32,073 nucleotides of DNA from Pseudobdellovibrionaceae bacterium (lineage in GTDB: Bacteria > Bdellovibrionota > Bdellovibrionia > Bdellovibrionales > Bdellovibrionaceae). The notes below the pieces were generated by a model. That model saw only the letters and a program-made list of their open reading frames with translations, had not been told where the DNA came from and made no database searches. This document shows, in pieces, positions 3,266 to 7,104 of this stretch. Made by a program: the position numbers and the translations under genes. The stretch lies in the NCBI GenBank assembly GCA_039810425.1, contig JBDHWW010000036.1, positions 1 through 32,073 of the forward strand, in the 5' to 3' direction. Position 1 is the first letter of the stretch. Each line of letters begins with the position of its first letter.

Positions 3266-4465
3266 TCACGACACCTTTTTGAGTCGGGTTTGTTGATTCA
3301 TCAACTGGTGAATCATTTGAATGCCCTCTTCTTGAAGGGCGTAGCCAAGATAATATTTTTCGCAAACTAGAACGCTGTTGCCGAGAGCCTTCGCAATCAG
3401 GGAGATGGATACCCCTGAATTAAGCAGGTGAACGGCATAGCTGTGACGGCAGTCGTGAGTCTTAAGATTTTGTTTTTCGCTCTCTTTGGGAAATGTCAGA
3501 CGACCCGCTTTTTTAATCAGTCGACTGTATTCAATGTCCCTCAGTTTTTCCTTAGTGGCCCGGTCAAGGTCGGCCCATGCTTGGACTCTTTGAAAATTAT
3601 TTTGAACGACGTAGGCGACTCGTTCTTTTCCAGTTTTCGTGGATGTGACTTTTTTGGAGTCTTTCAGCATTTGAGAGTAAACGGCTAACTGATTGCCGTC
3701 TAAGAGGTTAAACTGTCGGCCTGTCTTGATGTCTTTTTGCCGCTTCCCAAAAAGAGCAAAGGCTTCGCCAGTGCGTAGTCCTGTATAAAATAATGTGAAG
3801 AAAAGATTTTTGATGTCTTCTTTGAATTCTAAAAACTCCGTAGGGATTTCTAAGTTTCCAACGAGATTCAAAAATTCCGATTCCGTGAAGATGGTCGGCA
3901 CTTCGTTGTATTCGGCGGCTTCGAGCCTTTCACGGCGACCGATGAAGCCAAGCAGTGAGTTAAGACGAGAGCAAACCCGACGGTGAATGTTATTACGGTC
4001 AATTTTGTTGACCGCTTTTTGAAGTTCTTTGCGAGTGGCGGTTTTAAGGGAAAGGTTCTCACGGTCAATAACTAAAACGGCACGGGTGAAGCCCTGTTCA
4101 TGTCCCTTGGGGTTTACGATTTTTCGGTCTTCAATTCGTTCAGCCACGAAGTCGGCAAGGATTTTTTGATTATCAATGTGTTTAACGAGCCTGACTTTTC
4201 CATCTCTGATTTGTTGGCTTTTGTGAACCTCTGAGCGGATTTCTTTTGCGAGTCTTAAAAGTTCATCTCGCTTGGTTTCTGTCTGTTTGGATTTTTCCCA
4301 GTCGTGATTGAGGGCCTTGATGCGGTCGTTAGTGATAGTCTCAGCTTTTTTCGTGCCGTCCTTGTAGTGGACGACCTTTAGAATGGCAAAAGTTCCACGA
4401 CCCTTAAAGTCAGGATATTTGATAGTAAAATTGATTCTTTGAATGGCATTCGTCATCTCCGTCAT
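3266..4465 (-). CDS. Tyrosine recombinase / integrase (~399 aa)
   Basis: YTGLRTGEA (Arg), TKTG (Lys), HDCRHSYA (HxxR), LGNS, EKYY (Tyr). Start moved to ATG 4465 because the longer ORF overlaps the tRNA. Confidence 0.9.
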   Translation of the reverse strand: MTEMTNAIQRINFTIKYPDFKGRGTFAILKVVHYKDGTKKAETITNDRIKALNHDWEKSKQTETKRDELLRLAKEIRSEVHKSQQIRDGKVRLVKHIDNQKILADFVAERIEDRKIVNPKGHEQGFTRAVLVIDRENLSLKTATRKELQKAVNKIDRNNIHRRVCSRLNSLLGFIGRRERLEAAEYNEVPTIFTESEFLNLVGNLEIPTEFLEFKEDIKNLFFTLFYTGLRTGEAFALFGKRQKDIKTGRQFNLLDGNQLAVYSQMLKDSKKVTSTKTGKERVAYVVQNNFQRVQAWADLDRATKEKLRDIEYSRLIKKAGRLTFPKESEKQNLKTHDCRHSYAVHLLNSGVSISLIAKALGNSVLVCEKYYLGYALQEEGIQMIHQLMNQQTRLKKVS

Positions 4466-4616
4466 TTTCGGTATTTCCCTAAAGTTTCTGAACGAGACGA
4501 ATGGACGAAAGGCGATGCCGTCGTCGTTTTTGTTCAGTTTAAAATTTAGGTGAATACGAAGATTTAAAAAGTAATTGTTTAGAAGTTTTAAATGTTGCGA
4601 ACCTTCGGTTCGACAA

Positions 4617-4972
4617 TGGTGGCCCCGGGGAGAATCGAACTCCCACGCCCTTGCGGGCACTGGATTTTCTTACCACTCTGGTTTTCACCAGCTCACTGAT
4701 ACTTTGAGGTTCAGGGAGTTTGTGGTCTGGACTATGCCTTGACCGTGAAGCCTTACGGCTTGTTAGGTCCCGCTCGTCTAGTCTCTACACCTTCCGAAGA
4801 GATTTCTCTCTAAGGCTTGGCTCGGCATTAGCAATCTCATTAAAGAGATAAGCCTTCACCGAATTTGGGCGGTTCTACTCCGAGGGTTTCCCCAAGGGCA
4901 CTCAAGTTATGCTGACTTTTTATGAGGTCAGCGGTCTGAGTCCAGCGCGTCTACCAATTCCACCACAGGGCC
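4617..4972 (-). tRNA. tRNA-Leu(CAA), intron-containing; exons 4938-4972 and 4617-4668, mature length 87 nt
   Basis: Acceptor stem GGCCCTG/CGGGGCC plus A-CCA; D arm GTGGAATTGGTAGACGC; anticodon stem CTGGA/TCCAG with loop CTC^AAAA; long variable arm GCCC-GCAA-GGGC; T arm GGGAG-TTCGATT-CTCCC. Confidence 0.95.
4669..4937 (-). ncRNA. Group I intron (IC3-like, 269 nt, no homing endonuclease ORF) between tRNA positions 34 and 35
   Basis: Core motifs AAAUUCGGUGAA (P4), AAUGCCGAGCCAAG (P4/P6), GAAGGUGUAGAGACUAGACG (P6/P7), AAGGCAUAGUCC (P7); P3 CCGCCC/GAGCGG; GAAA tetraloops in P2 and P9; terminal G. Closely resembles the Azoarcus tRNA-Ile intron core as I recall it. Confidence 0.95.
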
Positions 4973-5135
4973 GTTGTGAAAAGTGAAATACGTTCTAATG
5001 GAAATAGGCCGCTTCGGACAAGTGGTTTTTCACAGTTCATGAATCTATTGCGCACTGAGTTAGTTTCTGTGGCGGTCGGTGTTTTTCGAGAATATACTCC
5101 CGGAGCTTCAAAACAACAAATTTTGGGAGAGTTTC

Positions 5136-5462
5136 ATGAAAATGTTCGCGATTCTTTTTGCATTTTTGAGTCTCAATACGGCCATGGCCGCGGATCCTTT
5201 TGTTCAAGTTATCATCAACGGTCAGACTTATAACTGCTCGGGCGGTGATAGCTCGGAAACTGCCTGCTTGAAAGTGGTTGATGCTGCCAATGCCAAATTC
5301 AAGGCTTGTGTGGCGGCGGGGTATTCTGGCGGCAGTTGCTACAATTTAGCTTTTTCAGGCAAGAAAGTGAATGACTGTACGATGTGGTCTGATGCTTGTA
5401 ACGATGCCTGTAAGCAGGCTGGTTATTCAGCAGGTTCTTGCTATAATTCTTGCTTCCAATAA
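5136..5462 (+). CDS. Secreted cysteine-rich small protein (108 aa)
   Basis: GGAGA RBS before ATG 5136; Sec signal MKMFAILFAFLSLNTAMA; 9 Cys; internal repeat ACxxAGYSxGSCYN twice; followed by a terminator. Confidence 0.8.
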   Translation: MKMFAILFAFLSLNTAMAADPFVQVIINGQTYNCSGGDSSETACLKVVDAANAKFKACVAAGYSGGSCYNLAFSGKKVNDCTMWSDACNDACKQAGYSAGSCYNSCFQ

Positions 5463-5717: not shown

Positions 5718-5786
5718 TAATCTTGTCACAAAATGAGATTTTAGGGCCAAAATGCCCCTCACTCCACACTCGGGAAGGGGCTTTGA

Positions 5787-5799
5787 TATCAAATACTTA
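5787..5799 (+). promoter_or_regulatory. IHF binding site
   Basis: TATCAAATACTTA matches WATCAANNNNTTR exactly and lies just upstream of a sigma54 motif. Confidence 0.65.
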
Positions 5800-5825
5800 A
5801 GCGTAAACGACGAAAAGCGTCATTT

Positions 5826-5842
5826 TTGGCACAGGGGTTGCT
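5826..5842 (+). promoter_or_regulatory. Sigma54 (RpoN) -24/-12 promoter
   Basis: TTGGCAC-AGGGG-TTGCT with correct GG-N10-GC spacing, about 45 bp before ATG 5887. Confidence 0.75.
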
Positions 5843-5886
5843 TTGTCTTGCTTGGAATCAAAAAGCTAAACCACGAGGAGAACACT

Positions 5887-7104
5887 ATGACGAAGTATTT
5901 CTATATCCTTGCGGCTCTAAGTATCGTTCCGAATTTGAGTTTAGCTCAGGCGGGGAACTTCGATGCCGAGGTCGATCAAGAACTCGACCAAATGTATGCG
6001 AATAAGCAGGCAGCAGTTGCTACAAATCCAGCTCCGACAACGGCAGCAGTGGGAGGAGCAGCGGCTCAGGGCAGTCAACCGATTTATATCTTAAATCAAG
6101 CGACACCGACGTCCACGGCAACAGCTCAATCAGCCCAGGTGCAAAAGCAACCAGTCGCGGTGATTGAATCAACTCCACTCGTGGAATCAAAGGCAGAGAT
6201 GATGAGAAAATCTCGTCAGGATGCTGAGGTTCAAACGGAGCAGAAGATCGTTGAAAAACTCGAGGCATCTCGTCTTGATGATGAAAAACGTCGTGCGGAT
6301 GTTCTCTTTGGAAATAAATTTGACCAATTGCAAGGCGCTTCCACTCAGATCAAAGCGGAGAACTCCAACGTGACTGTGTCACAAGGTCAAGTTCAGGCGC
6401 AAACTCCAGTCGTTGTTCAAGCGGCTCCAGTTGTGACTCCTGTGGAGCCTAAAGAAAACATCCGTGACGTTGTTCGTGAGGAACTGGCGGCTTCTAAAAA
6501 TTCCTTGAAATTGGAAGAGGTTGCGCCAGCACCAACGGAAGTTCGTTACTTCAGCGGTATCGTTGGCATCGGTGACTATCCAGATGTTAAAAACGTGCGC
6601 GGTAACTATTCATTCGGTGCGGCGTTTGGTACGAAGTATGACTCTCTTCTTGTCGAGGGTTCTTTCTTGTACTCAAACTACACCGTGGAAAAGCTTGACT
6701 GTAATTGCGTGAGCTTCTTCCCGACGTTGGTTGATACGAACCAGTATCAAGCCGCAGTCTCAGCGAAGTATCAACTGTTGGATGGTATGGTCCGTCCGGT
6801 GTTGGGTGGTTTGATTGCTTACAGCTACCGTAAATACAACTGGAACAGCTTGCCAAACTACGCGCCCTACAACAACTACGGTACATCTTCGGATTCACAC
6901 GCCATTGACTTGGGTGTGACGGCCGGTGTTGACTTGGAGCTCAGCAAGAAATTCGCTCTCGGTTTCGAGTACCGTTATATGTTTAATTTGTCGAGCCGCG
7001 TGGACAATCAGTCCATCATCGCAGCTTCGCAAAATCAGTACGGCACACCGCTTGAAAAGCTGAGCTATTACACAATGGCTATTGCCGCTAAAGTGAACTT
7101 TTAA
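5887..7104 (+). CDS. Outer-membrane beta-barrel protein with N-terminal low-complexity/coiled-coil region
   Basis: GAGGAG RBS; signal peptide MTKYFYILAALSIVPNLSLA; helical E/K/R-rich segment; amphipathic strands; C-terminal AKVNF. Confidence 0.8.
   Translation: MTKYFYILAALSIVPNLSLAQAGNFDAEVDQELDQMYANKQAAVATNPAPTTAAVGGAAAQGSQPIYILNQATPTSTATAQSAQVQKQPVAVIESTPLVESKAEMMRKSRQDAEVQTEQKIVEKLEASRLDDEKRRADVLFGNKFDQLQGASTQIKAENSNVTVSQGQVQAQTPVVVQAAPVVTPVEPKENIRDVVREELAASKNSLKLEEVAPAPTEVRYFSGIVGIGDYPDVKNVRGNYSFGAAFGTKYDSLLVEGSFLYSNYTVEKLDCNCVSFFPTLVDTNQYQAAVSAKYQLLDGMVRPVLGGLIAYSYRKYNWNSLPNYAPYNNYGTSSDSHAIDLGVTAGVDLELSKKFALGFEYRYMFNLSSRVDNQSIIAASQNQYGTPLEKLSYYTMAIAAKVNF

Follow-up and report, generated by a model that had tools for sequence, protein, structure and literature searches.

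How does a group I intron recognize its 5' splice site when the base pair marking this site is C-G instead of U-G? Few features of group I introns are as constant as the U-G wobble at this site, and work on the Tetrahymena intron established it as a recognition element. The window, by which we mean the whole analysed stretch of 32,073 nucleotides of a Pseudobdellovibrionaceae contig, contains a tRNA-Leu(CAA) gene whose intron departs from this rule.

With introns allowed, ARAGORN calls this gene on the minus strand (4617..4972, 356 nt including the intron) and predicts a mature tRNA-Leu(CAA) of 87 nt in which CCA is encoded. The call and our own reading of the strand give a 5' exon of 35 nt with C34 (4938) as its last base (4938..4972), an intron of 269 nt (4669..4937) and a 3' exon of 52 nt (4617..4668). 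ARAGORN places the intron between anticodon positions 34 and 35, and by its fold and its match to the Rfam family Intron_gpI it is a group I intron similar to the IC3 introns of bacterial tRNA genes. After removal of the intron the exons form a cloverleaf with a long variable arm and the anticodon CAA, as in a class II tRNA-Leu(CAA), and both halves match the intron-free CAA genes of sister genomes with 100% identity.

The 5' exon ends with A4941 C4940 U4939 C4938, and the intron opens with A4937 G4936. This stretch (ACUC|AG, 4936..4941, splice site 3' of C4938) is the 5' strand of P1 and pairs with the internal guide UUGAGU (4900..4905) through A4941-U4900, C4940-G4901, U4939-A4902, C4938-G4903, A4937-U4904 and G4936.U4905. 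The pair at the 5' splice site is thus the Watson-Crick pair between C34 and G4903, where a group I intron would have a U.G wobble in P1, and A4941 doubles as the last base of the anticodon stem. Since a match of six base pairs could be due to chance, we accept the pairing because of its homology in related genes. C34 could not revert to U, because the anticodon would change. The guide G has stayed the same in all 12 homologous copies described below. At the other end G4669 is the last intron base (omega) and is followed by AAAAUCC; this is the single possible choice of splice sites that gives a 7-nt anticodon loop (CUCAAAA) with G at omega. The preliminary description had given the same coordinates and the same C34-G4903 pair, which are correct to the base when the minus strand is read. 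It had also reported no register that gives U-G, and here too no shifted pairing of the guide brings U opposite G.

Within the intron, the Rfam alignment places J4/5 at 4855..4856 and J5/4 at 4828-4829, both reading AA on the minus strand. J4/5 forms a side of the wobble receptor in which the splice-site pair docks. The strands of P7 (5' strand 4779-4785, 3' strand 4729-4734) enclose the 3' strand of P3, P8 and J8/7 (4729..4785 in total, minus strand). A weakly supported 6-bp hairpin can be drawn within the loop of P1 (4911..4932). Furthermore, CUGGACU in the 5' exon (4938-4945) is complementary to AGUCCAG (4727-4733), which comprises the 3' strand of P7 and the following bases. The minimum-energy fold has this pairing in place of P1, which could reflect a competing precursor structure or chance alone.

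Run without introns, ARAGORN finds no tRNA gene in the window, and at gathering scores Rfam gives no match in it. At an E-value threshold Intron_gpI (RF00028) aligns to 4719-4918 of the minus strand with 30.3 bits (E 8e-6) against a gathering score of 50. The alignment spans model positions 1-253, i.e. the whole model, and the core helices P3-P9 with their junctions are all present. Both tRNA-Leu(UAA) introns of the same genome likewise stay below the gathering score (24.4 and 32.6 bits). None of the 12 sequences in the Intron_gpI seed is bacterial, and a cut-off of 18-20 bits was used by Williams (2020, bioRxiv, doi 10.1101/2020.01.27.920355). The other intron calls of ARAGORN in this genome (C1, C4, C22, C53, C86) were not taken up; no group I core was seen in C1, C4 and C53, the three that were read.

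A search of the family recovered the intron-bearing gene in 12 of 182 genomes, belonging to 6 of 41 genera. All 12 copies have GGACTC|AGA and the guide TTGAG, all six pairs of P1 and six pairs of P7 are invariant, and every copy ends in GGTAAG before AAAATCC. The exons form a proper cloverleaf in 11 of the 12. The intron-bearing gene is present in 7 of 61 related genomes; most of the others have an intron-free gene, both halves of which match the exons, often at 100%. Thirty loci were examined by ARAGORN, with 7 calls of an intron-bearing gene, 19 of an intron-free tRNA-Leu(CAA) gene and 4 loci without a call; the intron-free genes called read CAA in 19/19 cases. Of 401 genomes sampled across the phylum, 4 contain the intron-bearing gene, one of them from another family. 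In addition it was found on seven metagenome contigs, each with C at the splice site (7/7), although the search pattern itself demands C. Base 4938 had earlier been recommended for a check of read support: contigs of three RNA-library runs, representing the unspliced gene of close relatives, keep C at this position and show no other letter.

The copy from the other family (L317, G287:C28:29285-29643) is 96% identical to the window gene and closer to it than any copy from the family of the window genome. The similarity stops at most 3 bases outside the gene, and the flanks are unrelated. Its high identity and the confinement of the similarity to the gene point to horizontal transfer. One of the 12 family copies (L181, G195:C116:35295-35657) looks degenerate: it has a mismatch in the acceptor stem, mismatches in P2 and P3 and a shortened P5, and ARAGORN makes no call. 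When viral contigs were searched with a loose pattern, at least 118 loci were returned. We regard these as chance matches because the core motif of group I introns was found downstream in 0 of the 118 matches listed; a stricter pattern gave no match in viral contigs.

An artefact, be it a sequencing error at 4938 hiding a true UAA anticodon, as considered earlier, or an alternative splice register giving U-G, has next to no chance of being correct and is refuted by conservation, because the C-G pair and the guide are identical in all 12 homologues, which come from separate assemblies, and C recurs in the metagenome contigs (7/7, with a pattern requiring it), while a cut after U33 would leave a loop of 6 nt and only 4669 combines omega G with a loop of 7 nt.

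The wobble could also be restored at the RNA level. It had been proposed that C34 is edited to U before splicing, so that U-G is regained and a tRNA-Leu(UAA) is made from a CAA gene. We hold this to be very improbable. The proposal had been coupled to a search for a separate tRNA-Leu(UAA) gene, and the genome has two, one with a U-G intron (C28:20881-21238) and one free of introns (C121:1386-1471); with these at hand the editing idea is unneeded. The orthologous intron-free genes with CAA indicate that the locus encodes the CAA isoacceptor, and the RNA-library contigs hold C at 4938, although contigs hide rare variants. We know of no C-to-U editing at tRNA position 34 in bacteria.

The tRNA-Leu(UAA) gene on C28 (within the region G000:C28:19671-21238) is a second intron-split gene of this genome, with a group I intron of 272 nt and the canonical U-G pair. 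A paralogous integrase (24% identity) lies immediately upstream of it. About 16 kb downstream, at about 37190-37560 of C28, there is a 5'-truncated copy of tRNA-Leu(UAA) with a different intron (Rfam score 32.6 bits).

Where does an intron with a C-G splice site come from? A scan of named genomes with an 18-base core motif gave at least 120 loci. ARAGORN was applied to the matches listed and to three loci from relatives, which resulted in 102 intron calls. Among these matches and loci, 47 calls are in Leu(UAA) and 17 in Arg(UCU), all with U at position -1 and G at omega, and one is in Leu(CAA), with C at -1 and G at omega. ARAGORN often misplaces group I introns: 37 of the 102 calls had other placements and were set aside unchecked, bar two 'caa' calls that were read by eye and rejected. 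The two labels, both in named public records (L101 and L144), belong to class-I tRNAs of 76 nt with a CAU anticodon by eye and an intron 3' of U33. The single Leu(CAA) call among the matches listed is the record of a Pseudobdellovibrionaceae genome, a group that is now placed in Bdellovibrionota and was filed under Deltaproteobacteria in 2017.

We built a tree from 77 introns and 212 columns; besides the 12 introns of CAA genes it included 47 from Leu(UAA) and 17 from Arg(UCU), plus one stump copy. In this tree the CAA introns are monophyletic (support 100/99) within a Leu(UAA) clade (100/99), and their sister is a UAA intron (L124, support 98/91). The two introns on C28 (L155 and L172) both group with the Arg(UCU) introns, apart from the other Leu introns; we therefore rejected the genome's own tRNA-Leu(UAA) introns as donors. 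The parts that read the splice site are common to both sides of the change of host. The guide TTGAGT of all 12 CAA introns occupies the same alignment columns in 38 of the 46 Leu(UAA)-clade introns sampled, where it lies opposite U34. J4/5 is AA in 12/12 CAA introns and in 45/46 of the Leu(UAA)-clade introns sampled; for J5/4 the corresponding numbers are 12/12 and 34/46. These data support an origin of the C-G pair by transfer of an intron from a UAA gene to a CAA gene: the pair would have arisen because a Leu(UAA)-type intron moved into a CAA gene with its splice-site-reading parts unaltered.

This transfer was one half of an earlier suggestion, and the nested clade and the common guide hexamer speak for it. 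The other half, a U34C anticodon switch in an intron-bearing UAA gene, does not stand. Upstream of the tRNA gene lies an outer-membrane beta-barrel gene (5752..7104, plus strand; Pfam PF13505), homologues of which flank intron-free and intron-bearing genes alike, with 92.7% identity in the intron-free G005, and the promoter region is common to the intron-free G001 and G005. The beta-barrel gene thus identifies this as the resident tRNA-Leu(CAA) locus, and since exons, upstream gene and promoter all belong to it, a switch of the anticodon is out.

A ribozyme adapted to C-G, which had been put forward as well, likewise finds little in the alignment: the guide and the AA of both junctions are as in the U-G relatives, including J4/5, where a comparison of homologous introns for compensatory changes had been recommended and where the alignment now shows none. 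The only changes that could fit are candidates nearby. Substitutions specific to the CAA clade are a P4 pair adjoining J4/5 (G-C to U.G, U4858.G4826 in the window), one base of J8/7 (G to C, C4736 in the window), one pair of P3 (U.G to C/A) and one pair of P9a. Those near the reader of the splice site may compensate for the C-G pair, and we treat them as leads only.

Introns of this kind have been described before. Williams (2020, doi 10.1101/2020.01.27.920355) reported 72 introns termed 'Leu.3Cg', all filed under Proteobacteria by the taxonomy of 2017, in which C at -1 forms a Watson-Crick pair with G in P1; the preprint states that C-G at the splice site inactivates the Tetrahymena intron and that splicing of the Leu.3Cg introns needs testing. 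A literature search for the term Leu.3Cg yields this preprint alone. The window intron has the defining features, i.e. a tRNA-Leu host, insertion 3' of the third loop base, C at -1 and G at omega (CUC|...g|AAAA), and with host, insertion site, C(-1):G pair and omega G alike we see no difference of kind. The C-G type in tRNA-Leu has therefore been in print since 2020, and the window gene is a further member. The main text of the preprint gives no anticodon, genus, origin or genomic context for Leu.3Cg. New here are the nesting of the CAA clade in the UAA introns, the compensatory changes in the fold, the status as the only CAA gene found and the link to an integrase.

The classical tRNA-Leu(UAA) intron (Leu.3Ug) has the same insertion site (34/35), AA in J4/5 and the same core motifs including the 18-mer; it differs in its host, whose anticodon is UAA and not CAA, so that U-G becomes C-G in the window intron. 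Leu.3Ug introns are found in cyanobacteria, plastids and many Alphaproteobacteria. For the ribozyme of the Azoarcus tRNA-Ile(CAU) intron, which like the window intron is small and derived from a bacterial tRNA, C at -1 has been tried: according to a report in NAR 2008 (PMC2241849), CAC (C at -1) impaired the ribozyme least among four mutant triplets, and with C-G the activity was lowered and not lost at 100 mM MgCl2. To judge by its title, the paper of Hur and Waring (1995) deals with group I introns that naturally have C-G where U-G is usual. The Azoarcus case is a laboratory mutant in a trans self-assembly assay, whereas the window intron is natural, would act in cis and is described from its sequence. 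The introns of Hur and Waring are reportedly fungal mitochondrial ones in protein genes.

In the order we also came across a different arrangement, in which the D-loop of tRNA-Leu(CAA) is split by a group I intron. It occurs in 2 of 301 genomes, from two families (L151, at about 420-735 of G057:C200:1900-2800, and G023:C49:1-167). In L151 the intron has about 220 nt, scores 43.8 bits with Rfam Intron_gpI (E 1e-9) and by eye has U-G at its 5' site and G at omega; a 5' stump of an intron-free gene lies about 200 nt upstream. The survey of Williams (doi 10.1101/2020.01.27.920355) covers anticodon-loop sites only, and our search of the literature for group I introns in tRNA D-loops found nothing pertinent among the titles listed.

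Whether the C-G clade maintains its fold can be read from the changes among its members. For the P1-P9 structure, drawn manually with the Rfam alignment and visual inspection as guides, pairs were counted on the 12 CAA-intron sequences. In this structure 95.9% of the cells are paired. A total of 23 pairs have changed on both sides, whereas shuffles yield 13.0 ± 1.8, none of the 500 reaching 23, and slid partners yield 1-7. The compensatory changes are located in P2, P5, P5a, P6a, P8a, P9, P9a, one pair of the acceptor stem and the variable arm of the tRNA, where 3 of 4 pairs have them among the 12 copies. P1, P4, P7 and P9.0 are invariant; P3 is invariant in 4 of 5 pairs, and one cell is unpaired in one copy. 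Folded as a single sequence the intron has a z-score of -4.24. Judged by these substitutions, the fold is under selection inside the C-G clade.

For the hairpin in the P1 loop, whose sequence varies among copies, the support is weak since 68.2% of the cells pair and 2 of 6 pairs are double-changed (MAFFT columns). One P3 pair had been drawn one base off and is actually an opposition of C and A: at window positions 4868/4774 C stands opposite A in 12/12 CAA introns, both sides having changed. In the Leu(UAA) introns sampled the same pair is mostly U.G (T in 39/46, G in 43/46). C.A, when protonated, takes the shape of a wobble.

The tRNA gene is adjoined on its downstream side by the ORF of a tyrosine integrase (3266..4660, minus strand; Pfam PF00589, 34.7 bits at a cut-off of 27.1). 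Its listed GTG start overlaps the tRNA, and its first ATG is at 4465. Homologues of this integrase follow the intron-bearing gene at 5 of 12 genome loci and on 4 of 7 metagenome contigs. The integrase gene is full-length in the window genome (G000), G123 and G126, G118 has a fragment, and in G003 the contig breaks off within it. None was found at the 23 loci that lack the intron, of which 19 have a called intron-free gene and 4 have no call. Other recombinases lie beside some intron-free genes, which makes the locus a general spot for integration.

The arrangement is most complete in G123. There the order is a first stump of the resident gene (positions 1-39), a spacer of 175 nt, the whole intron-bearing gene, the integrase and, 8.85 kb further downstream, a second stump (positions 26-87). 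Repeated tRNA fragments in this way enclose about 9.4 kb. G003, G118, L304 and L307 share the upstream stump with its spacer, and G002 has a downstream stump with the same element end as G123. The two stumps overlap over the anticodon stem-loop, and the splice site lies inside the overlap. In the window genome we found neither a tRNA stump nor an element end of the G123 type; its contig ends 3.2 kb past the integrase, and the upstream side of the gene is host-like.

In the relatives, then, an element with a tyrosine integrase has inserted into the resident tRNA-Leu(CAA) gene, in the region of its anticodon stem-loop, has left it as stumps and has brought the intron-split copy as a replacement gene. 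There the intron-bearing gene travels with this element; in the window gene and integrase are seen, and that the element is carried at this locus too is suggested by the adjoining integrase together with the relatives. A deletion between the upstream stump and the identical 5' exon would be one route to the window arrangement. As in tRNA-targeting genomic islands, the integrase of G123 adjoins a tRNA gene and tRNA fragments stand at both ends. The usual island restores the tRNA gene by its own copy of the 3' part. Unlike such islands, the element splits the resident gene into two stumps that overlap and brings along a complete replacement, whose anticodon loop, the region of crossover, is split by the intron.

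These observations bear on the question of whether the precursor splices at all. The genome is 99.88% complete by marker genes, and within it no second CAA gene was found. UUG is the commonest leucine codon (27.3% of leucine codons in 1081 long ORFs, three times UUA). Because the split gene is the only CAA gene found and UUG the commonest leucine codon, splicing of the C-G precursor appears likely. G123 counts for splicing as well, as its resident gene is cut in two and the intron-split copy is the sole whole one. So does the relative tolerance of the Azoarcus ribozyme for C at -1. The precursor would self-splice by the usual group I route: an external G would attack 3' of C34, and then omega G (4669) would replace the external G and the exons be joined to give the loop CUCAAAA. 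Docking of P1 is probably weaker than in the U-G relatives.

The serious rival is that the intron is dead for splicing or badly crippled, i.e. that the gene is a silenced copy which a mobile element has brought in, with UUG left to tRNA-Leu(UAA). We judge this unlikely, yet it has to be weighed. C-G at the splice site harms, according to the work cited above, the Tetrahymena and Azoarcus ribozymes, and guide and J4/5 are without a compensating change. A tRNA-Leu(UAA) with modified U34 can in principle read UUG; as the genome has two tRNA-Leu(UAA) genes, the CAA gene is perhaps dispensable. The degenerate-looking copy of G195 (1 of 12) would fit a dead intron. A contig joining the exons was not seen over 4400-5200 in one DNA and three RNA-library runs, which is a weak test given that only contigs were searched and tRNAs are poorly caught. 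Against this rival, the peripheral helices are kept paired by compensatory changes within the C-G clade and the core is almost invariant. The exons retain a proper cloverleaf in 11 of 12 copies, the codon UUG is in heavy use with no other CAA gene found, and the type persists in six genera and a second family. On balance we consider the locus to be probably a tRNA-Leu(CAA) gene split by an intron of the Leu(UAA) lineage with a C-G splice site, predicted to self-splice and to travel with an integrase element.

Loose contig ends at 4668 and 4937 stem from other organisms, whose tRNA-Leu(CAA) genes are free of introns and differ in the D or the variable arm. In the metatranscriptome run X17 a contig of 542 nt spans the unspliced gene of a close relative (window 4622-4972). 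Its word depth is 195, compared with about 3-16 in the four other contigs of this run on the stretch; it ends 5 bases before the 3' end of the tRNA, extends 191 nt into a different upstream flank and may be carry-over of DNA.

The natural clade of C-G introns and its close U-G sisters make a clean pair of substrates for assessing the need for the wobble in a small tRNA-intron ribozyme, with three nearby substitutions named as candidates for compensation. The link to an integrase element suggests why such an intron might persist in a CAA gene. A tentative and rather doubtful extension is that the intron serves as a shield: the element would destroy the only tRNA-Leu(CAA) gene and supply a replacement whose crossover sequence is split by the intron at 34/35, which would prevent recombination of the replacement gene with the element's own integrase and with rival elements. 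This design works only if the ribozyme splices well without the U-G wobble. Were it true, the locus would be a natural system in which to test how the 5' splice site is recognized without the wobble, and the C-G site would be the price of the shield.
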